Source of the DNA: Escherichia coli
GTDB lineage: Bacteria > Pseudomonadota > Gammaproteobacteria > Enterobacterales > Enterobacteriaceae
NCBI RefSeq assembly: GCF_036507355.1
Contig: NZ_AP027877.1
Reading direction: 5' to 3' (one strand)
Length of the DNA stretch: 64,000 nucleotides
Part shown: in pieces, positions 38,339 through 62,055 of the stretch
Position numbering within the stretch: position 1 is the first letter of the stretch
Layout of the letters: each line of letters begins with the position of its first letter
Translations under genes and position numbers: made by a program
Notes under the pieces: model-generated
Seen by the model: only the letters and a program-made list of their open reading frames with translations
What the model was told of the DNA's origin: nothing
Databases searched by the model: none

Positions 38339-38412
38339 GCGGGCGTAGTTCAATGGTAGAACGAGAGCTTCCCAAGCTCTATACGAGGGTTCGATTCCCT
38401 TCGCCCGCTCCA
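38339..38412 (+). tRNA. glyU: tRNA-Gly (anticodon CCC)
   Basis: gcgggcgtagttcaatggtagaacgagagcttCCCaagctctatacgagggttcgattcccttcgcccgctcca. 74 nt, cloverleaf-compatible, CCA encoded. Confidence 0.95.
38390..38412 (+). repeat. attL core (glyU 3' end)
   Basis: 23 bp identical to 42585-42607. Confidence 0.85.
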
Positions 38413-38546
38413 TGACCTTTCTTAAAGTACTCCAACCTACTGAATCCTAAGGGATACGGCTTTAAGCCTTCCGCTAGTTTTACTCACTGTAACCAACACT
38501 GTAACTAAATTTGTTGAAATAGTGAGCAGACTTAAGATCTCAGTAC

Positions 38547-40178
38547 ATGCTCAACTCAAAAACCTATCTTTATCAGCGCAATGGCGTCTTTTATATCCGC
38601 CTCAGGATGAAGTCCACAGATCGCCTGACCGTTTCACATCCTTCCCATAGCCGTTATAAAATAGCGTCAGTATCACTACGGACTAAGGATAGACGTACAG
38701 CTATGGCTTACTCACGGCAAATCAAGGCAGCACTTAGGGCAATCCATGCAGACAGACCCAACGCCTCCTATGAGGAAATGAGGGAACACCTGAGGGACAT
38801 CGCAGAGTGGGAGTTGTCTACAGGTCGTTCAGACCTCTTCGAGCCAGATATGAGAGATCTATACCGTGACCAGTATGGGGAAGTGGGAGAGAATCTTGTC
38901 CATGCTCTGGCAAGCGAGCCACTGACTATTGACCAGCATCGCTATATTAATGAGGCTCTTAATGTACTCAAGGCCTGCATGAAGCGCATTGAAGCGGGAG
39001 ATAGCCAGCCACTTATAGATTATATAGATGGATTTGATGCTGCTGCTGGGGCTAATGGCCAAGCCTCTGCAACTCTATCTGTTAGTGCTCCCCAAAAAAC
39101 AAGCATTACTGAAGGCAAACACTGCGTAACCGTTGCTTCTCTCTTTGAGCAGTACGAGCAGGAAAACGCCCAGAACTGGAAGCCAGCAACATTACGAGAA
39201 AACAAAGCTTCTCATGCTGCGTTAATCGAAGTTTTTGATTATCTGGGCCTCAATGCTGACGCCAATGTGTTAGCTCGTGCGGATATGCTTAGGGTTCGGG
39301 ATATCCTCCAGCAATTGCCGAAGAATCGTAAGCAGCGTTTCAAAGATGTTCCGTTGGTTGACCTGCTAGGTCGTGAGGATAAAACCGATTGTCTGGATAT
39401 TGTTACCATCAATAATAAATATCTCATTAAGATGGCGGCTGTTTTCAAGTGGGCCGTGCGTAATGACCTGATTAAAAAGAATATGACAGAAGGGCTAGAG
39501 CTTAAGGTTCCCCAGCGTAAAGCCTCTGAGGCGCGTAATGCTTTCTCTACGGAGCAGGTAGGACAACTACTGGCTGCCGCCCAAGTTTACTCACAGAGAC
39601 CTTCTGGTAAGCCGTATCATTATTATGTTACCGCCTTGGCTGCTATCACTGGGGCGAGACTCAATGAAATAGCCCAACTACAGGTCAAAGACGTCAGGAC
39701 CACTGAGGCGGGAACCGTTTATATTCATATCAATGAAGACGATAGTAGTCTACCCGGTAAGAGCATCAAGAACGCTCATAGTGACCGCTGTGTGCCTCTG
39801 GTCGATGGGGCCTATGGTTTTATATTGGCTGACTTTATGAGGTTGGTTGAGACCCGTAGAGGCGCTGATGGTGATGACGCTATGGTGTTCGATGGTCTTC
39901 GCCTCATGAAGAACGGTTACGGTGAGCAGGTGAGTAAATGGTTTAATCGGACGTTGTTGCCTAAAGTCCTCGCAGACCGTAGCGGCTTAGCGTTTCACTC
40001 GTTTAGACATACAGTTGCGACCCAGTTAAAACAACATGGGGTCGAGTTGGCGTATGCACAGGCGATCATGGGGCATAGTTCAGGGTCTATTACTTACGAC
40101 CGTTATGCTAAAGAGGTTGAGGTTGATAGACTGGTCAATGTGATGGCTGATGTTTATAAGGAGGTTGTGGCCCCTTAA
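38547..40178 (+). CDS. Tyrosine recombinase / integrase (large, 543 aa)
   Basis: The C-terminal catalytic signature is visible: ..GARLNEIAQL.. (R), HSFRHTVATQL (HxxR), GHSSGSITYDRY (H..Y). The N-terminus YLYQRNGVFYIRLR is typical of integrase N-terminal arm-binding domains. Confidence 0.85.
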   Translation: MLNSKTYLYQRNGVFYIRLRMKSTDRLTVSHPSHSRYKIASVSLRTKDRRTAMAYSRQIKAALRAIHADRPNASYEEMREHLRDIAEWELSTGRSDLFEPDMRDLYRDQYGEVGENLVHALASEPLTIDQHRYINEALNVLKACMKRIEAGDSQPLIDYIDGFDAAAGANGQASATLSVSAPQKTSITEGKHCVTVASLFEQYEQENAQNWKPATLRENKASHAALIEVFDYLGLNADANVLARADMLRVRDILQQLPKNRKQRFKDVPLVDLLGREDKTDCLDIVTINNKYLIKMAAVFKWAVRNDLIKKNMTEGLELKVPQRKASEARNAFSTEQVGQLLAAAQVYSQRPSGKPYHYYVTALAAITGARLNEIAQLQVKDVRTTEAGTVYIHINEDDSSLPGKSIKNAHSDRCVPLVDGAYGFILADFMRLVETRRGADGDDAMVFDGLRLMKNGYGEQVSKWFNRTLLPKVLADRSGLAFHSFRHTVATQLKQHGVELAYAQAIMGHSSGSITYDRYAKEVEVDRLVNVMADVYKEVVAP

Positions 40179-40180
40179 GG

Positions 40181-40219
40181 ATGACCATAGGCGATGACCA
40201 TAGGCGATGACCATAGGCG
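40181..40219 (+). repeat. Tandem 13-bp repeat atgaccataggcg x3 (plus a partial fourth)
   Basis: Three perfect head-to-tail copies begin 3 nt after the integrase stop. Each contains the reverse complement of the CTATGGTC motif that recurs at 40239-40291 and 40821-40848. Confidence 0.9.
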
Positions 40220-40330
40220 ATGACACTTGCTACTATTCCTATGGTCCCCTTTGTGGTCCTATGTGGTCCTGTGTGACCCTTTGTGTGGTCATGTTTTGAC
40301 TCATAGTTTTCACTACTTGTCAAGCATATT

Positions 40331-40353
40331 TAATACGACTCACTATAGGGAGA
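40331..40353 (+). promoter_or_regulatory. Phage T7 RNA polymerase class III promoter consensus, 23/23 match
   Basis: TAATACGACTCACTATAGGGAGA is read directly, with an AT-rich -22..-18 region (atatt). Predicted +1 is the G at 40348. It points toward the cargo genes at 41158 and 41845. The sequence match is certain. Its function in vivo is inference. Confidence 0.85.
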
Positions 40354-40585
40354 AGGGACACAAAAAGTTTTCTCTCTCTGTCTCTCTCTATGATGACACT
40401 TGCTACTACTTCAGGTAGCTTTAACTCTAACCGTAACTTATCGCATCCTTTCAGGGGCGGGATGACCAATTACAGACACCAAGCGTTCTACTTAAAATGA
40501 ATGCTTCCTGTGTGCTCTGGGTCAGTCGATAAGTGAATAGCCTTAGACATCATATTAATTATGGTCTCTAACCCCTACAGGGGCT

Positions 40586-40729
40586 TAACTTTAAGTATTA
40601 ACTTATAGTCTACTTAAAGACACAATTAAAGATTAACTTAAAGTATTAAATTATAGATTAATTAAAGACCAATTAAAGAGTAACTTTAAGTATTAACTTA
40701 TAGTCTACTTAAAGACACAATTAAAGATT
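40586..40729 (+). repeat. Three tandem ~47-bp AT-rich iteron-like repeats
   Basis: The 49-bp string taactttaagtattaacttatagtctacttaaagacacaattaaagatt is identical at 40586-40634 and 40681-40729. A degenerate copy (40635-40680) lies between them. All are rich in TTAAAG submotifs. Confidence 0.85.
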
Positions 40730-40922
40730 GACTCTAAGGGAATACCTTAAGAGGTGATGATATTCATAATAATCAATCACCAAACCTATAGGTCTCCTCA
40801 AGGCATTACCCAGAAGCTAACTGTATGGCCCTGTATGGTCCTGTACGCCATTCTTTAGGATGCCATGTAGTTTCGTATGGCCTGATGCCTAGCGTGGCTC
40901 AGAGACCCTCCCAGTAGTAAAT

Positions 40923-40945
40923 CAATACGACTTACTAATAGGAGA
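40923..40945 (+). promoter_or_regulatory. Degenerate T7-like promoter
   Basis: caatacgacttactaataggaga matches the T7 consensus at 18/23 ungapped, or better if a 1-nt insertion near -3 is allowed. It lies 213 nt upstream of the 41158 ORF. Confidence 0.35.
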
Positions 40946-41157
40946 CACACTCCGAACCACTCACCACGTGTCTCTCAAAGTTCCACCTCTCGCGCTTCAC
41001 CATACAGTAGCTCCGCACAGCTACGACACAATCATTCATTCAATCTCAAAGTCATTCTGTTTGCATCCTGTTGTCCTGCTGGTCTCCCTTCGCTTGGGGA
41101 CTTTGAGTGGGCCAGTAGGGGGCGGTTTAGTGTGCATATTTAAAAGGTAACCAAGCA

Positions 41158-41721
41158 ATGAACAATAAACATAAACATGCAGGTCATATTATCACTATTG
41201 AAGGCCACAGCTTTAAGTCTAATGAGTCTGGCATGTGGAATCTTACAGAAATATGGAAAATCCTCGGATTACCTAACAATAAGCTACCCTCTCAGTGGCG
41301 CGGCAAGGTAACAAAGAGGCTCACCGACATGCAAAAAATGCACGTCGAGAAGATTGGTATTGAAAGCATAACCTACGCAGACAAACAGGCTACCCTCAAG
41401 TATGCAGGATGGGTCTCTGAAGATTTCGAGGACATGGTCTATGCAGCCTTTGAGGCTATCCTTGAGATGCCTGAAGTTGCCACGGTCGTTGCTAATAAGA
41501 TGGTCGAACTTGGCTATCACGCTGAAGCTGAGCTATTGGAACGTCATAAGGACGACTATAGAGAAGCTATGCAGACCCTTAAAAAGATTGGTAAACGTGT
41601 TGACGGCAGGAAGCCTGAGCGCATCTACAAGGCCGTACTTAACGGTAATCTGACGAAATTTCAAGGGTTATCCATGATTTCTCGCAGCAGTGTCTGGTAC
41701 GCCCGAACAGTGAATCTATGA
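41158..41721 (+). CDS. KilA-N-like DNA-binding domain protein (tentative)
   Basis: 187 aa. The N-terminal pattern is ..ITIEGHSFKSNESGMWNLTEIWKILGL..P.QW.. followed by ..TYADKQATLKYAGWVSEDFEDMV.. This resembles the KilA-N/Bro-type fold as I remember it. The C-terminal half is helical and basic. Confidence 0.5.
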   Translation: MNNKHKHAGHIITIEGHSFKSNESGMWNLTEIWKILGLPNNKLPSQWRGKVTKRLTDMQKMHVEKIGIESITYADKQATLKYAGWVSEDFEDMVYAAFEAILEMPEVATVVANKMVELGYHAEAELLERHKDDYREAMQTLKKIGKRVDGRKPERIYKAVLNGNLTKFQGLSMISRSSVWYARTVNL

Positions 41722-41844
41722 TGGCTATCGATCACGATAGATGCCAGCGATCAATTTCAGGTTACCGATCGAAACAAACGATCAGCACGATGGTTGCAAT
41801 CGGATATCATATTGACACTTGTCTGACATCCTGAAGGTATCAAT

Positions 41845-42318
41845 ATGTTTGGGCTTTTTAAGAAAAAGGCAAAAGCGGAAAGGTGTTATGATGTAACACG
41901 CATTCAATACGAGCTGGTTGTAATGTCATCTAAGCTGATAAAAAAACAGACCGATATGTTCAAAGTAATAAAAGGGGAGCGAGAGGAGGCTTTAGGAGAC
42001 CCTTTATTATCAGCAGGGTATATAACGCCATGGGTCATTGGATATTGCACTGGTCTCCTGGATGCAGTGACTCAGACGGAGGCTAACAGGATGGCATTTA
42101 CATCAGAAATGCTTGGGCTTCTTTTTGCTGCAGTTTTCGGTGATGATAAGTCTCTTGAGGCCATGGGAACTTATATAGCCTGTAACGAAGCCTCCTCACC
42201 AGACCATGGATTTCATGTTACGTATGAGCTTTATATGTCTGGTCTAGCGAAAGCGTTTAATGAGGTATGTGAGGATAAACCTGCGATAGGACTTCTGAAC
42301 TATTTAATGCAGGATTGA
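41845..42318 (+). CDS. Hypothetical protein (157 aa), no recognisable family
   Basis: Intact ORF on the same strand as the T7 promoter and the 41158 ORF. It is preceded by a GATC-rich spacer. Confidence 0.55.
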   Translation: MFGLFKKKAKAERCYDVTRIQYELVVMSSKLIKKQTDMFKVIKGEREEALGDPLLSAGYITPWVIGYCTGLLDAVTQTEANRMAFTSEMLGLLFAAVFGDDKSLEAMGTYIACNEASSPDHGFHVTYELYMSGLAKAFNEVCEDKPAIGLLNYLMQD

Positions 42319-42584
42319 AAATTTCCCACAAAAATCTCAGTGCCTATCTAACAGTAATAACCCTGCAACATTCCCCCGTATACCTCCAGAAGTTATCCAG
42401 AAGCCGAAGTAGGTATCCTGTCATGTATTTGAATCATCAAAGTTGTTCGTTCTATTCCTCTTTAGGGAATATTACAGCCCTACAGCCTTGACCAGAGATC
42501 ACTTGATGTGTAACCATAACTGTAACCAAAAGGATTCATCATCCTTTAAGAAACAATTGGTTAGTGAGTGATTGTCTTCGATAC

Positions 42585-42607
42585 TTCGATTCCCTTCGCC
42601 CGCTCCA
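42585..42607 (+). repeat. attR of islet 1, and remnant att junction preceding island 2
   Basis: ttcgattcccttcgcccgctcca, identical to the last 23 nt of glyU. Confidence 0.85.
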
Positions 42608-42771
42608 AACTCAAGTCTCCTGAAGTCTACCAAACTCAATTTTTCCTTGATAAATCAGCAGTTATAGCTTTCTATTAGTCTATTGAACTCAATTGTACTC
42701 CCCCAGGGTCAAGCTCAATGTGGGGGTATGGATGGGGGTATAATTGTACCCCCTGCTGAGAGGTACCCCCA

Positions 42772-43998
42772 ATGAAGCTGACTGCTCGTCAGGTTGAAAC
42801 TGCGAAACCCAAAGAGAAGCCCTACAAACTGGCCGATGGTGGTGGGCTTTACCTGCTGGTTAATCCCAACGGTAAAAGATACTGGCGTCTCAAATACCGT
42901 TCGTTAGGTAAAGAGAAGCTGCTCGCTATTGGCGTTTATCCCGATGTTTCTTTAGCTGAGGCCCGAAGTAAGCGTGAGGATGCTAAAAGAACATTAGCGG
43001 CTGGCAACGATCCCTCTCTTGAACGAAAAATTGAGAAACTTAGTCGTCAACAAGACGCTGAAAACTCGTTTGAGGCTATCACACGGGAGTGGTATCAGCG
43101 TCGCTATGACCGCTGGTCTGTCTCCTACCGCGAAGAAATGCTGAGAACCTTTGAGAAAGATGTATTTCCTTATATCGGTCACAGGCCAATCAAAGATATC
43201 AAGCCGATGGAGTTGCTTGCAGTTCTTTCAAAGATAGAAGCACGAGGGGCAACAGAGAAAGTCCGCAAGGTTCGTCAGCGTTGTGGAGAGGTCTGGAAGT
43301 ATGCCGTTGTGACTGGGAGGGCCGAGTACAATCCAGCACCTGATCTAGCCAGCGCCGTGAGTCCTCATGAGAAAGAGCACTATGCTTTTTTAACCCAGGA
43401 TGAATTGCCTGAGTTTCTTCGGACTCTGAACGCCTATGCCGGTAGTGTGCTTGTTAAGATTGCGATGCAATTGCTCATTTTAACAGGAGTAAGGCCAGGG
43501 GAGTTGAGGCAAGCGGAGTGGCAGGAGTTTGATTTTGAGAAAAAGGTTTGGAATGTACCAGCGGAACGTATGAAAATGCGCCGCCCTCATCTTGTTCCAT
43601 TATCAAGCCAGGCAATTGACCTGCTTAATCAACTTAAACCCATAACGGGAGCAGGAGCGTTATTATTCCCAGGACGTAATAATCCTAAGAAACCGATGAG
43701 CGATATGGCATTGACTGTGTTGGTCAGGCGTATCGGCTATGCCGGGCGCGTTACAGGGCATGGATTCCGCCACACGATGAGTACCATTTTGCATGAGCAG
43801 GGATTCAACTCGGCCTGGATTGAGTTACAGCTGGCTCACGTCGATAAGAACTCAATTCGTGGGACGTATAACCATGCTCAATATTTGGAAGGTCGGCGGG
43901 AGATGATGCAGTGGTATGGAGATTTCATCGGTCAAGCAGGCAAATCCGGATCATCGCTAGCTTATGCAGCTATTAGCTTGACTGCTGAATTAGAGTGA
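42772..43998 (+). CDS. P4-family tyrosine integrase
   Basis: 408 aa. The N-terminus MKLTARQVETAKPKEKPYKLADGGGLYLLVNPNGKRYWRLKYR is typical of the DUF4102 arm-binding domain. Catalytic residues: GVRPGELRQ (R), HGFRHTMST (HxxR), IRGTYNHAQY (Y). Confidence 0.9.
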   Translation: MKLTARQVETAKPKEKPYKLADGGGLYLLVNPNGKRYWRLKYRSLGKEKLLAIGVYPDVSLAEARSKREDAKRTLAAGNDPSLERKIEKLSRQQDAENSFEAITREWYQRRYDRWSVSYREEMLRTFEKDVFPYIGHRPIKDIKPMELLAVLSKIEARGATEKVRKVRQRCGEVWKYAVVTGRAEYNPAPDLASAVSPHEKEHYAFLTQDELPEFLRTLNAYAGSVLVKIAMQLLILTGVRPGELRQAEWQEFDFEKKVWNVPAERMKMRRPHLVPLSSQAIDLLNQLKPITGAGALLFPGRNNPKKPMSDMALTVLVRRIGYAGRVTGHGFRHTMSTILHEQGFNSAWIELQLAHVDKNSIRGTYNHAQYLEGRREMMQWYGDFIGQAGKSGSSLAYAAISLTAELE

Positions 43999-44008
43999 GA
44001 AGGGGCAA

Positions 44009-44039
44009 GTTGAGCCTCTTCGCTGAGAAGAGGCTCAAC
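44009..44039 (+). terminator. Hairpin after the integrase
   Basis: gttgagcctcttc-gctga-gaagaggctcaac, a 13-bp stem. A T7 run lies 10 nt downstream. Confidence 0.5.
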
Positions 44040-44195
44040 GTGAACCTATTTTTTTGGGAGTTAATACTTTTTGCAATTTTTTTTTTCGTGCCGTTGGATG
44101 TAAAGATCTGTGGGGGTTAGGGAAGAAAATCATGCTATGTTAGTCTTTGAGGAGTGAGTCAAAATGTTATAACTTTTTCAAAGAGGCGTTACATC

Positions 44196-45131
44196 GTGAA
44201 AGTCGTTTTTAATGTTAATGGTAAAAAAGTTCCGCTCAAATCTCTGCAATATATAAGTAAAGCAAATCAACTCGAAGTTATGCGGAATTGGTTTTTTGAG
44301 AATTTTGAAGATCCCGCGAACTCTTGCCCGTATGAATCCCGTGAAGGCGGGTATGCTTACATTTATGGGGGCCCATACGAAGCAAGTGAAGAGTTGCAAG
44401 CGATGTTTGAAGGACACGTGAAATTTGATTATATCCAAGAATTAGTCAATGAATTACAAGAACAGTGCTATGAATGGTCTGGTAATTCAAATAATATTAA
44501 TGATTGGTACGATGAAGACTTGTATGATGCTGTTACATCTTCTGAACATCCTTTTTCTAAGTTCGTTGAAAGCATTGATGGAATAAAATTGCTGTCTAAA
44601 GGCGAATTTAAAGATAAACAAAAAGATCATCTGCTTAGCATCCTATATATTAATGTCATTACAGCCCTGGAAACACTTTATGTTGAGTTATTTATTAACT
44701 CTATAGATAAAAACGACTCATATCTTGCTGACTTTATAGAAAAAGGTAAGACGGAATTTAAGGTAAATAAAGGAATATTGGCTTTGCCATTCAAAGGAGA
44801 AACTATTGAAAACATGAGGGCGCAATTAATTAAGGTAATTAAAGAGCATTTGATTAGTGCAAGTTGGCATAGTACAAACAAAGTTGTAGGACGTTATAAA
44901 GCTACATTTGATATAAAAGTACATAAAGAGTGGCCAATAGATGTGATCGAAATAGCAACTCAAAAGCGTAATCATTTAGTCCATCGTGGCGGGAAAGATA
45001 AAGAAGGTAATTCGGTAGTGATTACTGAACAGGATTTAGAAATGTTGCTGGATCACGCACAATCTCTTGGAGAAAAATTGTTTGATAGCCTTGAGGTGGC
45101 ATTACAGAAAAAAGATGAGAATGAATTTTGA
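44196..45131 (+). CDS. Candidate HEPN-domain (Rx4H) protein; the track ORF begins at 44154
   Basis: GTG at 44196 is preceded by aagagg at good spacing. The C-terminal region contains ..ATQKRNHLVHRGGKD.. (R-N-x-x-x-H), the hallmark HEPN RNase motif. The N-terminal domain is unassigned. Confidence 0.4.
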   Translation: MKVVFNVNGKKVPLKSLQYISKANQLEVMRNWFFENFEDPANSCPYESREGGYAYIYGGPYEASEELQAMFEGHVKFDYIQELVNELQEQCYEWSGNSNNINDWYDEDLYDAVTSSEHPFSKFVESIDGIKLLSKGEFKDKQKDHLLSILYINVITALETLYVELFINSIDKNDSYLADFIEKGKTEFKVNKGILALPFKGETIENMRAQLIKVIKEHLISASWHSTNKVVGRYKATFDIKVHKEWPIDVIEIATQKRNHLVHRGGKDKEGNSVVITEQDLEMLLDHAQSLGEKLFDSLEVALQKKDENEF

Positions 45132-45206
45132 GTCTCGGGGTAGGTTGATAGTGCTACCGATAACGAGCAAGCAAATGATACTCGGCAGGCAGTGCCTGCC
45201 GGAGGA

Positions 45207-46910
45207 TTACTTTTTACTTCCAAATTGAATGCCGAGAAGTTTATTCTCTGCTTTATCGCCACGTAGAGTAAGAACAATTTTTGATTTCAGTTCTAACATT
45301 TCGATTTCAGATAAAGTTGTTTCCATAGCATTAAAGTTTTCAGTGTTTAAAGATGCTATATATTGCTTTCCGCTTCGTTTTAATGACTGATTGACAAATG
45401 AGAACCATCTTGCGCGAACACCTGGATCTATATCAGCAAAAAGACGGTTATCATGCCATAGCATATCCATGGCATGGTTTTCACCACATGTAAATACTAA
45501 CCAGTCAAAGCATAATATCCTAGCATCATTGATCCCATCCGAATCATCACCCTCGATTTGGATGCTTAGATCATAACGAATTTTGTTGTCACCAGTATTA
45601 ACATCCAAAACTATTCCTGCTGGTACCCTTGGGTACATTATTTCTGCGAGCTCAGCAAAAATTTTATCGTATTCTGAAAGAGGATTTGTAGAAGCATAGT
45701 TTACCGCTAATCTGTCTTGTTCAACTTTTCGTTCTCTTAGATTTTGAGCTTTCTGTTGAAGGTTAATAGAAAAATTTAAATAATCATGTAACCTTTCTTT
45801 TTCTTCTTTAAATTCAGCTAGTTGTCTAGCTATGACTGCGTATTCATCAAATGCTTTCTTGCCTTGCAGGGATTCCAAATATGAATCACGTAATGCTGAA
45901 ATATCCTTAATGTCAATTTTAAGAGATTCAATTTCTAACAAAAGTTTTACTTTATCATTTTCAAGTCTTTTCTTTCTGTTAAAAGATAATGATTTGTGAA
46001 AATTTTCAACTGACTCAAAATGGGCCAATGTTTCTGGCTTGAAAATCTCTTGTAAGCCATTGTACAGTTCAAGAAGCTCTTCTCTTGAAATGTCAGGGTG
46101 TTCTAATAAAGTTTTTTCTATATTATTTACTTTAAATTCAGCTATATTTTTGTTTTTTTCAACTTCTCGTAATTTTATAGTTAAACTGTTTGTTTCATTC
46201 TCAATAGCTCTGTATTGCTCGTGAACTTGAAATGCATTCAGTTCATCCTGCAGTCTTGGGATCTCTCTTTCTAGCCACTCATAGCGTACTTTAGGTTGAG
46301 AGCCTGCTCTAAACATGTCTTTTAGAATATCATCGTCTTGCCAATTTTTTAGCGATTGACTTACTTTATCCAGCTCTTGCTTATTATTTCTTTTAGATAA
46401 TATTAAATTATGATCTATACCGAGAAGAAATGCGGTACGAAGCAATGCTTCAAAGTCTTGCTCCTTTTTTGTCCTAGTTGGACTGATGCAGTCATCTCTG
46501 GTATATCGCGAAAAACGCTTAAATAAAGATCTGAATGATAAATACGGAATGTTATTCTCAAGATTAAATATTCCTATTTTATCTAATAAATCTTTAAATG
46601 CTTTTAAAGATATTGTTTTGTCATTTAATAATAATTTTTTTCCATTGCCCGTTCTAGATATTAAGTACTCAACTCCATTATGAGAAAAAAGTAAAGAGAA
46701 CCACCAATCTGGAACTGCTGAAGTTAATTTTTTATCAGCATTAGCTCCTAAACAATGTTGAATGAGACCGAGAATAAGTGTCTTACCGACTCCGTTACTA
46801 CTGCCTTCTTTTTCTTTAGAGCTATCACCAATGATCAACGTTAGTCCTGTATCATTGAAATGCACTGGATGAAAAGTTGGCTGATCGCAAGTTAAGCGAA
46901 TTAACTTCAT
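45207..46910 (-). CDS. SMC/ABC-type ATPase with coiled-coil insert (LmuB / ABC-3C ATPase-like, DUF2326-like)
   Basis: 567 aa. Walker A is SSNGVGKT. There is a long K/E-rich coiled-coil middle, and the C-terminal block is ..DDSDGINDARILCFDWL... Its start codon abuts the stop of the upstream small ORF (taaATG). Confidence 0.6.
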   Translation of the reverse strand: MKLIRLTCDQPTFHPVHFNDTGLTLIIGDSSKEKEGSSNGVGKTLILGLIQHCLGANADKKLTSAVPDWWFSLLFSHNGVEYLISRTGNGKKLLLNDKTISLKAFKDLLDKIGIFNLENNIPYLSFRSLFKRFSRYTRDDCISPTRTKKEQDFEALLRTAFLLGIDHNLILSKRNNKQELDKVSQSLKNWQDDDILKDMFRAGSQPKVRYEWLEREIPRLQDELNAFQVHEQYRAIENETNSLTIKLREVEKNKNIAEFKVNNIEKTLLEHPDISREELLELYNGLQEIFKPETLAHFESVENFHKSLSFNRKKRLENDKVKLLLEIESLKIDIKDISALRDSYLESLQGKKAFDEYAVIARQLAEFKEEKERLHDYLNFSINLQQKAQNLRERKVEQDRLAVNYASTNPLSEYDKIFAELAEIMYPRVPAGIVLDVNTGDNKIRYDLSIQIEGDDSDGINDARILCFDWLVFTCGENHAMDMLWHDNRLFADIDPGVRARWFSFVNQSLKRSGKQYIASLNTENFNAMETTLSEIEMLELKSKIVLTLRGDKAENKLLGIQFGSKK

Positions 46911-47216
46911 TTAACTTTCCTTATTTTTTAATTTGTCATAATTGCAACAGATTGGCATTATTCTGTTTTCATTATCTAGCGTTATTTGTTTGATGCAAAA
47001 AAGAATGTCTACGGCAAGTATAAATTGTGTAAAAGAGGGCGTGATTATCGTTGATTTATTTTTCCGCTCTATTTTTGTCCATAGTTCTTCTATGGATACC
47101 GGTCCATCAATTAACGAACGGATGTATCCTGCAATCGCAATTAGGGAGTTACTAAACCTAACATGCTTATGTGGCAGAAGCATTGCTTGGATGTTCATAA
47201 GCATCACATGTCTCAA
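46911..47216 (-). CDS. Small middle-component-like protein (LmuC / ABC-3C MC-like); possibly the 3' part of a frameshifted ~148-codon gene
   Basis: 101-aa ORF with a TTG start, translationally coupled to the ATPase. A 62-aa ORF in another frame (47167..47355) fills the gap back to the upstream gene. Confidence 0.4.
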   Translation of the reverse strand: MRHVMLMNIQAMLLPHKHVRFSNSLIAIAGYIRSLIDGPVSIEELWTKIERKNKSTIITPSFTQFILAVDILFCIKQITLDNENRIMPICCNYDKLKNKES

Positions 47217-47390
47217 AATATTTAGCTAAAATTAACTCTGCAGCAAATCGATAACTCGCGACCGCACTTGTGGGAACTTGCGGGGGAAGGAGTTTATCTA
47301 TCATCCAAGTATATCTTAAATCTGCATAATTGTGGTTATCTTCAGTTATCGCCAATTTACTTTTTGCATAAGTATCTCTAACTTCTTGAG

Positions 47391-48173
47391 CTATAGTTTG
47401 TTCAAGACCACAAGACCATTATCAACAGAATCTAAAAATTCATTTATCAAATATAGTTGATAGCTAAAAGATTCCAGCCTGCTTTTTATTGGTTTTGTAA
47501 TACCATTTATTTTTATTTTATCTTCGAAGTCCGGGGCTGTTTCACTTAAAAAATTCATGGGTGAAGAAGATTTTTGTGCTAAAAAAGTCAATACTTCACC
47601 AACAGCTCGAGTATCTGTAAAGTCTAAATTAACCTCAGGAATGAAACCTACAATATCTTGCTTTTCACCCTCGGATAATGACATAAACTTTTGAAGGAGC
47701 TCCATCCCACCCATTGCACCTGCGTGATTAAGACTTTTACTGATTGCAAGTGTATTTAATGAAAGTCCAACAGGTGCTGGAATACCCTTGAAATAATCAT
47801 TCATTACAAAAGTATATTTTGATACTTTCCCCCATTTGGCGACTAATTTATCAAAGTCGCCAATCGATTTATTAACAGCTTCTAGCTCTTTGGTTTGATT
47901 TGAAGGTTTAGGTCCATAAACTTGGAAGTAATGAGCCTCATGAGCAATCCACCCATCATTCCCGCCATCTCCCCAGTTTCCCCAAGGGGAAACAGCTTGA
48001 AAGCCAGGAGTCGCGTATTGCATAACCTTCGAAAAAAGCGCCTGAAAACTGTCTCCCATACATTCATGTACTTTTAACCGAAAGAACTGTCTGTAGAGGT
48101 AATCTTGCTGTGTCGAACTCATTTTCCTCTCATCCATGATGAACACTTTTGATGATAATATCCTCTCATTCAT
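47391..48173 (-). CDS. Putative effector of the three-gene system, with an N-terminal Mrr-like PD-(D/E)xK motif (LmuA-like); start may be M18
   Basis: 260 aa. The GNWGDGGNDGWI motif resembles the GDGGIDG motif of the Mrr catalytic domain. The C-terminal half is helical. It is the first gene of the operon. Confidence 0.4.
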   Translation of the reverse strand: MNERILSSKVFIMDERKMSSTQQDYLYRQFFRLKVHECMGDSFQALFSKVMQYATPGFQAVSPWGNWGDGGNDGWIAHEAHYFQVYGPKPSNQTKELEAVNKSIGDFDKLVAKWGKVSKYTFVMNDYFKGIPAPVGLSLNTLAISKSLNHAGAMGGMELLQKFMSLSEGEKQDIVGFIPEVNLDFTDTRAVGEVLTFLAQKSSSPMNFLSETAPDFEDKIKINGITKPIKSRLESFSYQLYLINEFLDSVDNGLVVLNKL

Positions 48174-48282
48174 TGTTGTAAACCTATGATTAGCAAAATT
48201 GGAGATGCTTTCACTTTAGAGTTGGTATCTAAAGGTTATAAATTATCAAAACAGGTTGTATAGATATCAAATTGAATACGAT

Positions 48283-54604: not shown

Positions 54605-55417
54605 CTAGACACTTCCGAGCCGTTGATAATACTGGTTTTCATATTCTGTCGGTGACATCTGATCGCTGGAACCATGCCGACGCTTACTGTTATAAAACAT
54701 TTCGATGTAATCAAAAATATCGCTGCGGGCTTCTTCCCGCGTTCCGTAGATCTTTTTCTTTATCCGTTCGCGTTTCAACAACTGGAAAAAGCTTTCTGCA
54801 ACCGCATTATCATGGCAGTTACCGCGACGGCTCATGCTGCCCTCCAGGCCGTGTGATTTCAGGAACGACTGCCACTCATGGCTTGTGTACTGACTGCCCT
54901 GATCCGAATGAACCAGCACCTGTTTTTGGGGATTACGGCGCCATACAGCCATCAGCAGTGCGTTCAGGACAATGTCCTTTGTCATCCGGGATTGCATGGA
55001 CCAGCCGATAATTTTGCGTGAGAACAGATCAACAACCACGGCAAGATACAGCCAGCCTTCGTGGGTCCTGATGTAGGTTATGTCCGTTACCCAACGCTTA
55101 TCCGGAGCATCCGGATTGAACTGTCGCTGGAGCCTGTTGGGCGACACGATACTGGCCTCGCCTTTACGTGCCCGCGGGCTCCGGTATCCGACCTGAGCCT
55201 TTATCCCGACACGTTTCATCAGTCGCCAGACTCTGTTCACTCCGCACTGTTGCCCGCTGTCCCGCAGATCCAGATGGATTTTGCGATAACCATAGACGCA
55301 TCCCGATTCCAGCCAGAACTGTTTAATCTGCCCTGTCAGCCTCAGGTCTGCCTGATGGCGTTGTGAATGCGGCTGCTGAAGCCAGGCGTAAAAACCACTG
55401 GGATGAACATCCAGCAC
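54605..55417 (-). CDS. IS3-family OrfB (DDE transposase core; expressed as an OrfAB fusion)
   Basis: 270-aa frame with DDE-type blocks ([29 protein letters not shown]). Confidence 0.9.
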
Positions 55418-55473
55418 CCGACAGAGCAGGCGAACAGGCCAGCAACAGGTGTTGTCACGGATAAAGGCGTACC

Positions 55474-55758
55474 TCAGTCGGACAGCTTTGCGAAGTACGC
55501 CGCGGCTTTTTTTAATATGTCCCGTTCGTCGGTAACCCGCTTCAGCTCTTTCTGGAGACGGCGGATCTCGGCCTGAGCATCTGACTGTTCTTTATTAGCG
55601 GAAGAATCCGGACCGTACTTCTTTATCCAGGCGTAAAGGCTGTGGGTGGTGATATCGAGACGTGTTGCAACGCTGGCAACAGAATAACCGCGATCAACAA
55701 CCTGTTTGACTGCTTCAATTTTAAACTCTTCGGGATAACGCTTACCGCTCATGGGCAC
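55474..55758 (-). CDS. IS3-family OrfA (HTH)
   Basis: 94 aa, ..KRYPEEFKIEAVKQVVDRGYSVASVATRLDITTHSLYAWIKKY.. LKKAAAYFAK. Confidence 0.9.
   Translation of the reverse strand: MPMSGKRYPEEFKIEAVKQVVDRGYSVASVATRLDITTHSLYAWIKKYGPDSSANKEQSDAQAEIRRLQKELKRVTDERDILKKAAAYFAKLSD
55507..55513 (-). promoter_or_regulatory. Probable -1 programmed frameshift site (A AAA AAG)
   Basis: An A7 run sits on the IS coding strand inside the orfA 3' end (..ATATTAAAAAAAGCCGCGG..), the canonical IS3-family slippery motif. Confidence 0.6.
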
Positions 55759-55812
55759 CTCTCTTTAAGCCATCTTAAATGACTCTGAGGTGTCTGTTAA
55801 ACCCGTGGCGAT

Positions 55813-56790
55813 TCACTCTAATGCTTTTTGAGCAGCAAGTTCAAGTTCACTTTTTCCATGAAGTGCCAAAGACATATGGCATTCCGCTAGAAGGCAATAA
55901 CATTCTGTTTTTAGCGTCTGTATATCACTTTTATTTTGTAATCCATCAAATATAGTCATGGCCCTGTAAATGCTTTCAGGGGTGAACTCGTAAAGTTCTT
56001 TCTTTCCGGCTAACATTTCATCTGATAAATAATGATTCTTATATCCTTGGTCCTGCTTAGCTAATCTTACAGATCGTTCTGGTTTATGTACCGTTTGAAG
56101 GATATTATCTATAATAAATTGTGATGTATTATGTAGTTCATCAACAGGGAGATGATTACTGGCGATGAGGAAAAGGTTTTTAGCGTCGATCAACTCAATG
56201 TATAAAGTGTTCACTGCATTATTCTGGTTTATTCTTCCTGTAACGAAATAATCTGGCTTGAATCTGCTCAAGAATGAATTTTGAGATATGTGGTCATTAC
56301 AAAAATTTGTCGCAGCCATCGGATAGGTATAGAGACCATCGATTTTTTTATTTGAAATGATTTGTACTAATTCCTGATTAAGTATTAATGGATCCAGTGT
56401 ATTCAATGAAGTGGTGAAAGGGAATATAGCTATGGAATAGTCTGAAGTATTATCTTCATTAATTTTAGTTTTGAAAACCTGCCCGCTGAAACGATAACCT
56501 TTCCGGTAGATTGTTTCTATGCAGCGATCATAGCCAATTTTTTCAAAAATGCAGCGCAAAGAATAGATACATCTTGTCAGGGACTCGTCACTAACAATAA
56601 TATTTTTCCATACTGATTCGATGATCATATCTTTCAGTACAACATGACCAGCGGATTCAAGTAATACTATTAATACACCTAACTCTTTCGGTGGAATATA
56701 AACTTGCTCATTTCCTTGAGTAAGAATTCCATCTTCCGTGAGCGTTAATCCCTCAAGAAAATGATATGAGAATTTATTTTCTAAGTCCAT
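55813..56790 (-). pseudogene. ygeH: ETT2 HilA-like regulator YgeH, 3'-truncated by the IS (325 of ~458 codons)
   Basis: [25 protein letters not shown].. with an OmpR/ToxR-type winged helix. The ORF's stop codon TGA (55813-55815) is supplied by the IS terminus. Confidence 0.85.
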
Positions 56791-57123
56791 TAGTTAACCT
56801 CTATGAAAAAATTGGTTTCTTGCATCCTGCATAAGCAATAGAAATTATGGCTATTCATATTTATATGTCATTAACGCTACAGGAGTTTACATTCGACATA
56901 TCTATGGTTGTGTTCACTAATTTATCTTAGGAATTCAGTGATGTAATCTGAAATAGCCTTATTCAATTTTGATAAAGTAAAATGCTCTCTAAAGCATTGA
57001 AAAATAATGATTTATTGTATGCTCTTAACTGTTTTAAGATGCTGATTTAAGAAAAGATAAGAGGTGCTGGTTATAGTGGTTAATGCACTATAACCAGCAA
57101 TTTTAACCAAATGATTGTAATGC

Positions 57124-57615
57124 TTAGTTATTATCTTCTGAATTATCGGTTAAGAGTTCGACATATGCCTGCGCTTTACTCTTAACACTATCATCCTCAC
57201 AATTGTTAATAATATGAAAGAAACATTGCATTGCGTTATCGATATTTTTAGCCCCAATTTGACATTGACCCATACGATAAATAACTGAATAGTCATCATA
57301 TGGCGAGTAATTATAACTTAGCTTGTAAAGGTCATATGCTTGTTGATATTTCTTTTTTGACTGACATACTGATGCAAAACCTTTTAGATATTCATGATTT
57401 TCGAACGCATAAATGCACAATAATTTATAATAAATTTCTGCCTCCGTTATATTACCCTTTTCATGGTAGTCGAATGCATATGCATATATTCTATCAAGGA
57501 TATCAGGAGTCAAACCATGTAGTAATGCCAGATTTTCTCCTTTCGATAATGCGTGTTTTAGTTGATTTGCCCATTCATCACTATTATTGAATATTTCAAT
57601 TGTTTCTGTGTCCAT
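57124..57615 (-). CDS. ygeG: ETT2 class II T3SS chaperone (TPR, SicA/LcrH-like)
   Basis: 163 aa, matches K-12 YgeG. Confidence 0.9.
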   Translation of the reverse strand: MDTETIEIFNNSDEWANQLKHALSKGENLALLHGLTPDILDRIYAYAFDYHEKGNITEAEIYYKLLCIYAFENHEYLKGFASVCQSKKKYQQAYDLYKLSYNYSPYDDYSVIYRMGQCQIGAKNIDNAMQCFFHIINNCEDDSVKSKAQAYVELLTDNSEDNN

Positions 57616-57861
57616 AATATTCCTCTGTGATGTGTCTCGTGATGCTAAATTATTATTGATTGACTCATTAATATTTCTACATTTATCTTTTTTAAATTAT
57701 GAGTTTTAAGCTTGCATTGCTTATGAGTATATTTCTTCATTATTAGTAAAATTACTGTCCACTACAAACTAATTACATTATTAGTTATTTTGATAATATT
57801 CACCTTATTAGTAATCTTAATTACGACATTCCATAAATGCCTTAATGTGCATGACCATGAT

Positions 57862-58266
57862 TCATATTATCAATTTCCATTTTTCGATCAAAATTAAAAA
57901 GGGGATTTTTGCGAAGGGGCGAATGTCGTTTGTTTTTTTTTCTTTATTATGTCTGGTGATGAGGGGGGATAGAACGTCGGTGCATATAGTAGAGAATTTA
58001 TCCAGGTCTAAATTATTCTCTATTTTGGTCAGTTTTATGAGTTCATTTGTAGCCATACTCATTAAATCATCTGTTATCGGAAATTTATATATGCTCATAG
58101 CAGATAATATTGCTTGCTGAATTATTTCTTCAGAAAAATCCGCTATCTTTATTGACAAATCATGTATTTGATATTTTCCTCCAAGAGATTCTTGTTCAAT
58201 ATAATTTAAACCAGACCTCATAGTAATTTTAACTGGATTAACGAATTTTTCTTCATTTTTCTTCAT
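57862..58266 (-). CDS. ygeF: ETT2-associated small protein, ygeF-like
   Basis: 134-aa ORF at the position of K-12 ygeF, in very AT-rich DNA. Confidence 0.55.
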   Translation of the reverse strand: MKKNEEKFVNPVKITMRSGLNYIEQESLGGKYQIHDLSIKIADFSEEIIQQAILSAMSIYKFPITDDLMSMATNELIKLTKIENNLDLDKFSTICTDVLSPLITRHNKEKKTNDIRPFAKIPFLILIEKWKLII

Positions 58267-58771
58267 TTTTCTTATTTTTGTTCTCCTGATCAGGAACTAA
58301 TGGTTGCAGTGGTAGGCTATTATTAATATTTCGTGGCTTCATTTTACATTTCTCTCATTTGATTAGAGCAAAATCCGAACTCGCAGCTTCTGATAATGTC
58401 AAATATCACCTTTTCTCATACTTTATTCTATCAAAAATCGCTCATTTTTACTTTTTTTACCATAATGTTACTTTGTAGCATCGGCAATTTACATAACTTA
58501 CACGTTGTTTTTTATATCCTGAAAAAACAGATAGATAGTGTGCGCACTCGAAATGATATTGGTAACATAAATAGCTTTATTCGTGATAAACATCTCAAAA
58601 GATTTCCTTTATTATATTCGAAATTCATTTGATCAAGGTTATCACCTTATGGAGACGTTACGTAGAATGACTATATTTGTTATCGGCACATTAGGGGTAT
58701 TAATTTTAGTATTGATGGAAGGTGATTATTGAACAGTAACATCGAGTCACGGTAAAAATGTGAGGTATATA

Positions 58772-59197
58772 ATGGATATTGAGTTTTCGCAGATTCATGA
58801 AATGGTCTATATGCATGATATTGTAAATTCGGACTCGAAAAAGAAACCAAGGATTCCGTTAAAAAAATTCCTTAATGCTGAGAAGGTTCTCACGCAAACA
58901 ACATCATGGGCATTAAATTCAAGATATGTGAATGTTAATTCTGTTAATAATGCCAACGTAAAGAGTAAAGTTAAAAACAGTTATATCTCACGATCTGTCA
59001 ATGATGAGTTTAGTTTAACAGATGATGAAATCAATTCTTTTAAAGAAACGTTAGTCCTTTCCTCTATTGATTCACTGAGTAAACTGGTTCTTAATAATCC
59101 TCTTTCTGTATTGTTTACTTCGACTGTACGAAGGAATAATAATCGAGCTAAGATGAATGTAGAGTTCGACTCATGGATTTGCACCAGATGTTGTTGA
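58772..59197 (+). CDS. yqeK: Uncharacterised protein YqeK
   Basis: 141 aa from [16 protein letters not shown]... Position and orientation are as in K-12. Confidence 0.7.
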
Positions 59198-59345
59198 TAC
59201 ATGATATTTTACATTGCAAGGGGATGTCTGAAATGAAAGATGTTGATCAAAACTTTGATGCTTTAGACTGCCATATACTGCAAGCATATTTAATTTTATT
59301 GTTTTATGATTAACGAGGTTCCATCTTTTTGTTATCTATTTTAGT

Positions 59346-59840
59346 TTACCTTGCACAATGCATTATTGCTCTGTTACCAATACTCAAAATAAAAGCATGC
59401 TTACCTTGCTTTAGTATATTATAGCTTACACTTTTTTCTGGAAAGACATAAAAATCAGGAATAAGTTCTGCAAGTCTATCATCATCGACTTGATCCATAA
59501 TCTCAAACTTATTAACTTTCTTTGATGTTAAATGGGCTGTGTCATAGTTTTCAACCCATGTGTATTCAATATTTCGCCGTATTGATTTACTTTCTCTGTT
59601 ACCTTGTTGCCAGGTTCCACTCAACGCAACAGTTCCTGTTTTATTTTTTTGGTTATACATAAAGTCGATAGTAAGATTTGCTCGCCCCTGGTCATTAAAA
59701 ATTACCCAATTTGCAGTGCATGTCTCATTATATATCATTTTTTCTGCAGTGTAAGAATAGACAGTGAAGAGAATAAACCCACTGATAAAAACTAAAATAA
59801 ATAATAAGTTTTTTTTATAATCAATCACGATTAACCTCAC
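59346..59840 (-). CDS. yqeJ: Uncharacterised membrane-anchored protein YqeJ
   Basis: 164-aa ORF with an N-terminal TM segment. Overlaps the yqeI 3' end by 20 nt. Confidence 0.8.
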   Translation of the reverse strand: MRLIVIDYKKNLLFILVFISGFILFTVYSYTAEKMIYNETCTANWVIFNDQGRANLTIDFMYNQKNKTGTVALSGTWQQGNRESKSIRRNIEYTWVENYDTAHLTSKKVNKFEIMDQVDDDRLAELIPDFYVFPEKSVSYNILKQGKHAFILSIGNRAIMHCAR

Positions 59841-60630
59841 GGTAAGACAGGGTTAAACAGCCTGCCACTTCATGTTGGTTATAGTTTTTATTGCATGCCA
59901 TAACAATCATCCCCGGTGAGGATTTTGCAAGAGGGAAGTATAACCACGGATATTTTTTACAGTTAATCCCCGAATCCAATATCCGTGTTTTATATTTATC
60001 GAACTCTTTCAACCCATCAATTGTATCTTCTGTTACATTAAAATGGCAGCCATTAATTTCCGCAACAATCTTGTAATCCTTGAAAAATGGCTTCGGTTGA
60101 TTATTATTCCATAGCCAATATGCAAAATATGCGCCTATGACAAATGCGCTCAACATAATTAGATGACTTTTTATATGTTTGAGGATTTTGTTATTGAAAT
60201 TCTTTGCGCCACCAATGCTCTCTTTGTATCCCGCATTAACTTTTATGGCCGGTGGGGTATTGTGTGTATGTGCGTCTGTTGACGAGTTTATTACATGATT
60301 TTGTATGTTAATGTCATTATGGATCTTGAATCCTCTTCTCGGCACGGTTGCAATAAGTGAGTGGGTAGTATCACCAACAGCGCGAAATCCGCGTCTGATA
60401 ATGGATATGTTCTGATATAACGTGTTAGTTGGCACACGCATACCTTCTTCTTCCCAGACTCTGGTGAAAAAATCTTGTTGTGCAACCACATCAGGAAAAG
60501 CTTCAAGTAGAAGGGATAAACAACGACTGGCTGGCGTTGTCAGAACGACGTTAAGATCGGCGTTATGTACCGATATTAATTTTCGGTGCTCAGGCCAGAA
60601 CTCGATATTATCGTTAATAATCCAGTACAT
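59821..60630 (-). CDS. yqeI: ToxR/CadC-like membrane-anchored transcriptional regulator
   Basis: 269 aa with an N-terminal winged-helix domain (..RVPTNTLYQNISIIRRGF..) and one TM segment. Matches K-12 YqeI. Confidence 0.9.
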   Translation of the reverse strand: MYWIINDNIEFWPEHRKLISVHNADLNVVLTTPASRCLSLLLEAFPDVVAQQDFFTRVWEEEGMRVPTNTLYQNISIIRRGFRAVGDTTHSLIATVPRRGFKIHNDINIQNHVINSSTDAHTHNTPPAIKVNAGYKESIGGAKNFNNKILKHIKSHLIMLSAFVIGAYFAYWLWNNNQPKPFFKDYKIVAEINGCHFNVTEDTIDGLKEFDKYKTRILDSGINCKKYPWLYFPLAKSSPGMIVMACNKNYNQHEVAGCLTLSYREVNRD

Positions 60631-60963
60631 ACGTCAATAAACACTAAATCAATCGAAATGGAAATCACATAGTTTGCTAAGTATATTGGTATTTACGGCA
60701 TAAATATATATTAATTTTATATTTATCATGATGATTGAAATGAGGCTTTAATGGCGCAACGTAAAACTTTATATAAATTAACATGGTTAACATTTATGCC
60801 ACTATTGTTGATAAATTCATATTTCGTAATGCTTCTGAATTTTTCGTGTGATGGTTTTAAATACTATGTTGTTTACTCTTGGGGTTACTGCTTATTTATA
60901 AAATACGGGCATTCCAATAGATGCCCGTATAAGCAGAGTATGATTCTGGCAGATCGTTGAGTA

Positions 60964-61596: not shown

Positions 61597-62055
61597 GTTA
61601 AGAACCTCCCTATCCGTATATAATTGCATAATTTCATTGGTTATTGATGATGTCAATACACCATGATTTTGTAATGTTGCTGGGAAAAATTGCGATTAAT
61701 CTGTATTTGCTATAATTCTGATTAAGACATTTAAAAATGCATTTCTCGTTATTAAATATGATTATGTTTCACTGATTTAATCTTGCATGGTTGAGAGTGG
61801 TCCAGATAACTATCTCATGGTATGAGAATATCTATATCGCAAATTGTTTTTGAATGACCAGAAGATATCTTGCGAATCTAAGTTATGCATCTTAAATAGT
61901 CTTATTTAAGATGTTCAGATCTCTTTGTGTGTTTAACTAACTGATAATTCTAGGATATGATGAGAGAAGTGATAGGGCGGAATAATAACAAATGAACATT
62001 ATGAAAAATGGAATGGTTCAAAATTGTAGTAATTTTGAACCATTCACAATGGATA

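Follow-up and report, generated by a model that had tools for sequence, protein, structure and literature searches.

The P4-like, PICI and PLE families of phage satellites are recognized by a primase or rep gene, by alpA/stl, by sid/psu/delta or cpm/terS, and by a size of 9-18 kb. Only two satellite families, PLE and PICMI, have known virulent helpers (PMC10803314). Among engineered constructs, phagemids that carry a T7 origin, a pac site and a terminal repeat are replicated, packaged and transduced by T7 as concatemers of approximately genome length, as recounted in PMC13236587, which cites Chung and Hinkle (1990). The present analysis concerns a 64,000-nucleotide stretch of the Escherichia coli chromosome (hereafter the window; contig NZ_AP027877.1 of RefSeq assembly GCF_036507355.1), which covers the xdh/actS/glyU region and contains a 4.2-kb island with a perfect T7 promoter. 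Because the island holds counterparts of each cis-element of a T7 phagemid together with an integrase, the best explanation, with a probability of roughly 70%, is that it is a minimal integrative satellite, a natural 'T7 phagemid' that would be switched on, replicated and packaged as concatemers by the T7 machinery. The cis-elements, their statistics, their co-variation with phages and the mobile-element anatomy are matters of observation. The island and its principal parts are:

38413-42607: island, 4,195 bp, inserted in the tRNA-Gly gene (glyU)
38339-38412, + strand: tRNA-Gly (CCC), glyU (ARAGORN; Rfam tRNA, 71.6 bits)
38390-38412, + strand: attL core, TTCGATTCCCTTCGCCCGCTCCA, 23 nt, the 3' end of tRNA-Gly-CCC
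38547-40178, + strand: tyrosine integrase, 543 aa (PF00589, E 2e-18; PHROG 1 integrase, E 3e-42)
40331-40353, + strand: T7 class III consensus promoter, TAATACGACTCACTATAGGGAGA, 23/23, predicted +1 G at 40348
41158-41721, + strand: KilA-N/Ant-like DNA-binding protein, 187 aa, the first open reading frame (ORF) downstream of the promoter
41845-42318, + strand: orf157, an all-helical protein of 157 aa and unassigned function (AlphaFold2 pLDDT 69.7)
42585-42607, + strand: attR core, TTCGATTCCCTTCGCCCGCTCCA, a perfect 23-nt copy of the tRNA 3' end and the right boundary of the island

The limits of the island are set at 38413 and 42607 because the last 23 nt of the tRNA-Gly gene recur perfectly at 42585-42607. 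The gene content amounts to int, kilA-N and orf157, and approximately 1 kb of non-coding DNA holds the promoter. Searches of Pfam and PHROGs detected no capsid, tail, terminase, lysis or replication genes in the island, and the tRNA was the sole match of an Rfam scan. The island is thus integrated, has its own integrase and att sites and is free of virion structural genes, as is general for satellites; the lack of structural and lysis genes predicts that it would depend on a helper.

The promoter shows no mismatch to the 23-bp consensus (-17 to +6) and, taken with its flanks, is identical to T7 phi9 over 26/26 positions and to phi13 over 25/25. It is the only site within three mismatches of the T7 consensus in the window, none of 100 shuffles contained such a match, and it reads toward kilA-N and orf157. 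The first-pass annotation, made from the letters alone, had claimed a perfect 23/23 class III promoter whose flanks are devoid of vector elements, and both points hold: with mismatches allowed, no lac operator, T-phi or gene-10 leader occurs in the 64 kb, and neither the ribosome-binding site nor the multiple cloning site of an expression vector is found there. It had also placed the promoter between att repeats and beside an integrase. The integrase does lie directly upstream and true att sites do enclose the promoter, at distances of ~1.9 kb and ~2.2 kb, but the repeats nearest to it are of another kind, the borders of a promoter cassette. Two further features belong to this region:

40219-40235 and 40392-40408: 17-nt repeats, the borders of a ~120-bp promoter cassette
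40923-40945, + strand: second, degenerate promoter-like site, CAATACGACTTACTAATAGGAGA, resembling T7 phi4.3 with one substitution and a 1-nt insertion

The 17-nt repeats were considered as att sites and rejected, since they delimit a cassette that is tandemly amplified in relatives. One cassette is present in the window, and it is duplicated in two of the related loci (which are numbered with the prefix L), L007 and L008. In L039 (11576-11944), and also in L035, a 121-bp cassette with a perfect T7 promoter is repeated in tandem 3.1 times with 96% matches. Two promoters each are found in L007, L008 and L004, and some relatives have two to three promoter copies.

A perfect 23-mer, taken alone, could have reached the assembly with a pET-type T7 promoter, through vector or laboratory contamination or through misassembly, the outcome that the first-pass annotation had named as fatal to its claim. 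The absence of lacO, T-phi and the gene-10 leader from the window speaks against such an origin, and so does the finding of the island, with the same chromosomal neighbourhood, in metagenomes and in dozens of independent complete genomes of water, animal and human origin. Since this island occupies one and the same locus in the complete genomes of many independent natural isolates, contamination and misassembly are excluded for practical purposes, and their probability is negligible. The promoter is real and natural, and is part of an integrase-bearing mobile island. At glyU, the island occurs in natural E. coli isolates from water, livestock and other animals, and humans, and all copies are chromosomal. 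At least 80% of a 4-kb query is present in 35 complete E. coli genomes, and parts of the island in 303-384 of 5,426. Strain SBF22 carries a 4.2-kb copy (4,203-bp att spacing) followed directly by yqeG.

The relatives extend well beyond E. coli. The integrase has at least 246 cluster representatives, some clusters having hundreds of members, and the best 120 of these are 81-99% identical to it. The hosts include E. coli, Klebsiella, Serratia, Yersinia, Raoultella, Citrobacter and Plesiomonas, among others; a scan of one genome per species added 17 further species with related loci, and island loci are also present in metagenomes. Where both att copies were found, the islands measure 4.1-7.6 kb. 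In three E. coli loci (L003, L005 and L009) the integrase is broken by insertion sequences (ISEc12, IS3 family) with the promoter region intact; some copies of the island are therefore probably immobilized.

The promoters of these relatives follow the phages. A search for the 23-mer in other genomes recovered it in perfect form in nine of the ten E. coli relatives fetched, the tenth (L005) having one mismatch. Other islands carry different T7-group 23-mers, which without exception are + strand sites; most lie 600-1,300 nt downstream of the integrase gene, a few closer. One variant, AATTAGGGCACACTATAGGGAGAC, is found in 5-8 copies per genome in the Klebsiella phages K11, KP32, K5 and K30, where it is annotated as a promoter. 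Exact copies of AATTAACCCACACTATAGGGAGAG, the ICP3/N4-type phage promoter, and of ACTTAACTATCACTATAGGGAGA, the Kayfunavirus-type promoter (EcoDS1 and others), are present in further islands. The K11/KP32, ICP3/N4 and Kayfunavirus variants that were checked are all multi-copy, annotated promoters in the respective phages. Within the 30 kb downstream of the integrase at 22 loci, the + strand has 37 copies of CACTATAGG and the - strand none, against an expectation of 0.115, and the sequence is absent from 193 kb of flanking DNA. The promoters always lie on the strand of the cargo genes, and in most relatives a good promoter follows ~500-630 nt after the first, a position matching the degenerate site at 40923-40945. 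Promoter conservation, phage-specific variants and strand bias together support selection for recognition by a phage polymerase. The earlier proposal that perfect identity reflects selection by a T7-specificity RNA polymerase, and not relic homology, gains support from these conserved and phage-matched promoters.

Several islands depart from the common promoter pattern. K11/KP32-type and T7-type promoters lie within 100 nt of each other in L003 (5796-6351; E. coli AR435 and ST167-like relatives) and L016 (9249-9826; K. pneumoniae ATCC 13883), an arrangement suggesting that a single element can answer to phages of two genera. ACCAGACCTAAAGA, which in both islands lies immediately upstream of the promoters (L016 9149-9162, L003 5695-5708), matches the T7 left-end short-repeat unit (T7 287-313) over 14/14 positions, a match that is borderline on its own (E ~0.1). 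The Pectobacterium islands (L019, 4381-4402 and 4956-4976; L020) have no CACTATAGG and carry TTAACTATCACTATTGGGAGA and AATAACGACTCACTATTAGAGAG instead, which are possibly the promoters of an uncharacterized Pectobacterium podophage.

The second group of signals corresponds to the two edges of the T7 terminal repeat, which are divided between the two ends of the island:

39063-39086, + strand: T7 concatemer-junction mimic (right edge of the terminal repeat and class II pause signal), GCCTCTGCAACTCTATCTGTTAGT
42315-42380, + strand: mimic of the T7 left genome-end junction (right-end unique DNA/start of the terminal repeat)

In T7, gp18/gp19 are recruited when the RNA polymerase pauses at the concatemer junction (PMC3276506). 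For the class II signal ATCTGTT, sequence specificity and conservation are strict, and A, C or T is required immediately before it (10.1101/2021.01.11.426313; 10.64898/2026.02.12.705533). T7 positions 149-168 (CTCTGTGTCCCT|ATCTGTTA) combine the right end of the terminal repeat with this signal. The window element is identical to T7 147-170 at 16/24 positions, with CTATCTGTTA intact, and the integrase genes of L016, L019 and L003 are identical to T7 149-168 over 20/20. The T7-identical 20-mer is kept in the Pectobacterium islands (L019; L020). In the window, T-ATCTGTT at 39076-39083 (ATCTGTT from 39077) lies inside the integrase codons L177-S178-V179 (CTA TCT GTT). A codon alignment of divergent integrases shows that the pause motif forms a conserved nucleotide block in an indel-rich, hypervariable linker of the protein, where third-position conservation reaches 100% at L177 (xTA, mostly the rare CTA) and S178 (TCT), the mean over the gene being 0.68.

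A scan for phage left ends based on 15-mers with mismatches returned chance-level matches alone; gapped local alignment later succeeded. Positions 42315-42355 align with T7 39746-39786 at 34/41 ungapped identity (z ~11). No other position on either strand of the window equals the local score of 56 for 42315-42380 (mean 17.5, sd 3.4, next best 30), nor did any of 2000 shuffles. The predicted cut falls between 42346 and 42347, at CTA|TCTAACAGT. An element of this kind lies 145-213 nt before attR in every island examined.

For islands with a known cognate phage (T7, K11 or EcoDS1), the phage that matches best is the one indicated by the promoter type. In islands with T7 promoters the left junction matches T7 best (scores 56, 60 and 48); in L016, which has a K11 promoter, it matches K11 best (50 versus 43 for T7); in islands with Kayfunavirus promoters it matches EcoDS1, with scores of 52 and 46 versus 24 and 27 for T7. 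The pause site reads ATCTGTT in islands of the T7/K11 type and ATCTGTA in those of the Kayfunavirus and ICP3 types. These variants agree with the annotated 'concatemeric junction' of K11 (ATCTGTT) and EcoDS1 (ATCTGTA), and the ICP3 record likewise opens with ATCTGTA. The Lonsdalea island (L018) is an exception to the agreement of pause site and promoter, or its helper is not known. Promoter type, left junction and pause-site variant vary in step with the cognate phage genus. The likeness to both edges of the T7 terminal repeat, co-varying with the phage, is what would be expected of a mimic of the helper's packaging signal.

The geometry of the two halves depends on recombination. Solely after excision, or in concatemers, do the junction halves stand in phage order downstream of the promoter and face each other across attP. 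The equivalent of the terminal repeat that then spans attP measures 925 bp in the window island and 785-958 bp in 13 islands.

The mimicked elements all derive from the region of T7-like phiOR, terminal repeat and phiOL at the genome ends, and several copies of the island have integrases disrupted by insertion sequences. Both facts would fit the decay of a temperate, integrase-carrying T7-like prophage down to its genome ends and integrase, in which case the promoter would be relic homology. Decay accounts poorly for an architecture, a size and perfect att repeats that are the same in many species, for cis-elements at or near identity with those of present-day virulent phages and co-varying with them, and for the constraint on synonymous positions of the pause site. 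No remnants of structural or replication genes are present in the island, and comparison with 50,697 phage records gave no close homologue for its ORFs. A relic is consequently very unlikely.

The third group of signals lies in the non-coding DNA on both sides of the promoter:

40585-40738, + strand: AT-rich 48-nt repeat, 3.2 copies, of TTAAAG-type units (Tandem Repeats Finder)
40744-40836, + strand: inverted likeness to the T7 segment just downstream of phiOR (~39277-39366), including a GGTGAT...ATCACC inverted repeat
40180-40285: tandem repeats upstream of the promoter, GATGACCATAGGC in 3.5 copies (40180-40224) and a 10-bp TGTGGTCC-type array (40247-40285)

Against a genome-wide T7 null of local scores (mean 20.8, sd 5.6), the 48-nt repeats score 65 and 63 with the tiles of T7 201-700 (phiOL/left end), 57 with 5801-6100 (the primary origin, phi1.1A/B) and 40 with the phiOR region; none of 1000 composition-matched shuffles reached the scores for the phiOL tiles and the primary origin. 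They begin ~235 nt downstream of the promoter, so that the combination of a promoter with AT-rich DNA that marks T7 origins is present in sequence. The segment 40585-40738 may accordingly be described as T7-origin-like DNA, and would be a candidate origin. A type III toxin-antitoxin system or structured RNA was considered for the repeats and dropped, there being no Rfam support and a likeness to T7 origin DNA. The adjoining segment 40744-40836 scores 49 (null 20.1, sd 3.2; 0/1000 shuffles), and its GGTGAT...ATCACC DNA hairpin is weak (z -1.8). The upstream repeats contain (T/G)GGTC pentamers, including TGGTC on the - strand of GATGACCATAGGC, which we take to be T7 primase recognition sites. 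Clusters of these pentamers were dropped as evidence because they are present in the window and L002 and are not conserved across the family or in other genera. The copy number of the 13-bp GATGACCATAGGC varies from ~2 to ~13 between strains (window 40180-40224; L002 5935-6090). The likeness to phages surfaced only by short-word and local alignment with T7, K11 and EcoDS1: blastn in its distant mode, with the 1-kb non-coding region against the 50,697 phage records, returned nothing at E 1e-5. Beyond the cis-elements listed here, no similarity between the island and T7 was found.

Transcription, excision, replication, packaging and transfer of the proposed satellite would proceed as follows. 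In an uninfected cell, the island would lie silent in glyU. Upon infection, the RNA polymerase of T7 or of a close relative would fire the island promoter (+1 at 40348), leading to expression of kilA-N and orf157, and, by analogy with T7 origins, the same firing would prime replication by the phage replisome. The integrase would excise the island, maybe aided by the phage-induced KilA-N protein or a phage factor. Excision would join attR to attL and give the order promoter, genes, 42346|42347, attP, 5' part of the integrase gene, 39076|39077. As in T7, the RNA polymerase would then pause at ATCTGTT, and the terminase would process the concatemers and fill normal capsids; ~9 copies plus the 925-bp repeat would come to 38,680 bp, 97% of the T7 genome length. 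Reinsertion of a copy at glyU by the integrase would follow in the next cell. The presumed helpers, judged by the signals, are the T7-like Studiervirinae.

Short repeats next to the att cores would suit the excision step:

38487-38506, + strand: two CTGTAAC(C/T)A direct repeats 12 nt apart, 75-95 nt inside attL
42509-42528, + strand: two TGTAACC direct repeats 12 nt apart, 60-75 nt before attR

TGTAAC occurs six times on the + strand of the island and never on the - strand, and four of the six lie next to the att cores. The two repeat pairs are candidate arm-type binding sites for the integrase or a recombination directionality factor.

Several observations weigh against a satellite of T7-type phages. 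The predicted attP junction has no full-length match in the 5,426 E. coli genomes and is also missing from IMG/VR and the JGI metagenome contigs, and there is no direct sign of excision or encapsidation. Metagenome contigs of 4.2-4.6 kb were considered as circles and rejected; they carry the tRNA and therefore represent integrated copies. In our reading, the contig identifiers of the IMG/VR loci look derived from isolate genomes, not from viromes. No excisionase or replication gene was recognized in the island. In the window, the second promoter (40923-40945) is degenerate and the pause-site mimic is diverged upstream of CTATCTGTTA (16/24). The fit of integer copies to the capsid is uneven across islands (0.84-0.99), and the argument that integer copies fill the capsid was rejected as a general one since it does not hold uniformly. 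Finally, the escape of the island from the degradation of host DNA by T7, in a cycle of ~20 minutes, has no explanation.

The cargo genes bear on a different use of the same signals. The 187-aa ORF, labelled 'KilA-N domain-containing protein' in RefSeq, matches KilA-N at E 9.5e-4, below the Pfam cut-off, and PHROG 129 at E 8e-10; the protein is a candidate phage-triggered regulator or excision factor. Structure prediction and searches of folds and families gave no informative match for orf157, whose relatives comprise 25 matched cluster representatives, enterobacterial wherever named. In tblastn against the phage records, kilA-N and orf157 found distant Vibrio Ant-like matches or none. No sigma-70-like promoter precedes kilA-N or orf157, and no intrinsic terminator was detected in the island outside the integrase ORF. 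PADLOC recognized no known defence system; its weak partial match of KilA-N to PD-T4-2_B (E 1.3e-4) was the only one, int and orf157 having none. Among relatives the cargo is variable and includes DUF4145, Ant/Rha, DUF6971 and proteins of 365-402 aa without a family.

Two cargo arrangements recur. In larger islands of 6-7.6 kb (L016 11614-12822, L029 11505-12602, L004 8797-9918), kilA-N and orf157 are replaced by a conserved set of an Ant/Rha-like gene, a small ORF, DUF6971 and a 365-402-aa protein without family match. A DUF4145 gene (PHROG 1305, 'DNA binding protein') lies between the integrase and the promoters in L010 (4201-4830), L012-L014 and L016 (8609-9241); being upstream of the phage promoters, it is presumably expressed by the host.

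These genes could belong to a defence or decoy island that is triggered by the phage polymerase and has no transfer of its own. The T7 polymerase would induce toxic or interfering cargo (KilA-N, the hydrophobic helical orf157), and strong promoters and junction mimics would titrate polymerase and terminase or cause misprocessing of DNA, and so abort the infection. Cargo that is placed downstream of a phage promoter with no sigma-70-like promoter, the defence-flavoured variety of cargo in relatives, the PD-T4-2_B match, the tandem promoter cassettes of some relatives and the failure to find an encapsidated or circular form in the collections searched are all in keeping with interference. It leaves unexplained the attP-dependent arrangement of the junction halves, their conserved 0.8-0.95-kb geometry, and the intact integrase, att and arm-type sites across genera. 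Interference and transfer can, moreover, coexist, as in PLE and PICI. An island devoted to defence or decoy alone is therefore unlikely.

To the right of the island, a second, low-GC island (~34-36%) occupies 42608-48200, directly after attR:

42772-43998: P4-type integrase
44154-45131: HEPN/RES-NTD1-like ORF
45207-46910, - strand: DUF2326 protein (PADLOC candidate PDC-M68B, E 8e-73)
47391-48173, - strand: weak LmuA-like ORF

It has the look of a defence island that inserted in tandem by way of the same tRNA-derived att; a third att copy was not found. Further along, GC is as low as 0.31-0.36 over a long block at window positions 55000-62000; in related loci, the annotations beyond glyU include ETT2-type type III secretion remnants.

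Taken across hosts, the islands make it fairly probable that an Enterobacterales-wide, gene-poor satellite family parasitizes virulent T7-like phages almost wholly by mimicry in cis. The promoters would act as both infection sensor and replication primer, the junction would be rebuilt only by excision across attP with one half inside the integrase coding sequence, and the three signals would be readjusted, lineage by lineage, to suit helpers of the T7, K11/KP32, Kayfunavirus or ICP3 type. The literature searched describes no satellite of T7, the model virulent phage, or of T7-like phages. If the proposal is true, the minimum for hijacking a tailed phage drops to an integrase plus cis-signals, the trigger follows a new logic in using the promoter of the helper's own RNA polymerase, and a packaging signal is hidden in coding sequence to be assembled only by recombination. 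The conserved mimic pinpoints nucleotides under selection in the poorly defined pac/junction region of T7. To our knowledge, E. coli chromosomes are commonly assumed to be without T7 promoters; the assumption fails in ~6% of complete E. coli genomes, which bears on T7 expression in wild strains. Therapeutic podophages of Klebsiella (KP32/K11-type), Salmonella and E. coli may mobilize such islands or be inhibited by them.

Among known systems, the engineered T7 phagemids (Chung and Hinkle 1990; used in PMC13236587 and PMC9981461) are the closest: each of their cis-elements has a sequence counterpart in the island. The island differs in being natural and chromosomal, in the replacement of the plasmid origin by an integrase and attP, in a phagemid-like function that is predicted from sequence, and in a junction that is split by attP and the 5' end of the integrase gene, spanning ~925 bp compared with 160 bp in T7. 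With the end region of the T7 genome, it shares the promoter (23/23), the left junction (34/41), the pause site, AT-rich origin-like DNA and the segment downstream of phiOR, but these elements are rearranged around non-phage genes.

The PICMI of Vibrionaceae (PMC10803314) are likewise very small integrative satellites without capsid-remodelling or packaging genes, and their concatemers fill the full-size capsids of virulent helpers. They lie beside fis and need int, alpA and a primase, whereas the island lies in the tRNA-Gly gene of Enterobacterales, has no AlpA or primase match, and would rely on helper-polymerase promoters and a junction mimic; it thus falls outside PICMI by gene content, site and host. 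The marine VEIMEs (PMC9618062) are integrase-bearing monomers of <5 to 17 kb, whose 8-17-copy concatemers equal phage genome lengths. They are defined by observed encapsidation, their helpers and signals not being known; for the island, by contrast, the helper type and cis-signals are read from sequence and encapsidation is a prediction. PLE of V. cholerae (helper ICP1) and P4 (helper P2) also mimic cis-sites of their helpers to use the replication and packaging machinery. At 10-18 kb, however, they carry many dedicated genes for replication, capsid redirection and regulation, of which none was detected in the island; with 4.2 kb and three ORFs, it has no AlpA, primase, Sid/Psu/Cpm or TerS and does not belong to the P4-like, PICI or PLE families. 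Full-text literature searches found no description of a satellite of T7/Autographiviridae or of natural chromosomal T7 promoters. In kind, the island is probably a phage satellite, set apart from those described by a switch that uses the promoter of the helper's polymerase and by a packaging junction that is assembled by recombination and lies partly in coding sequence.

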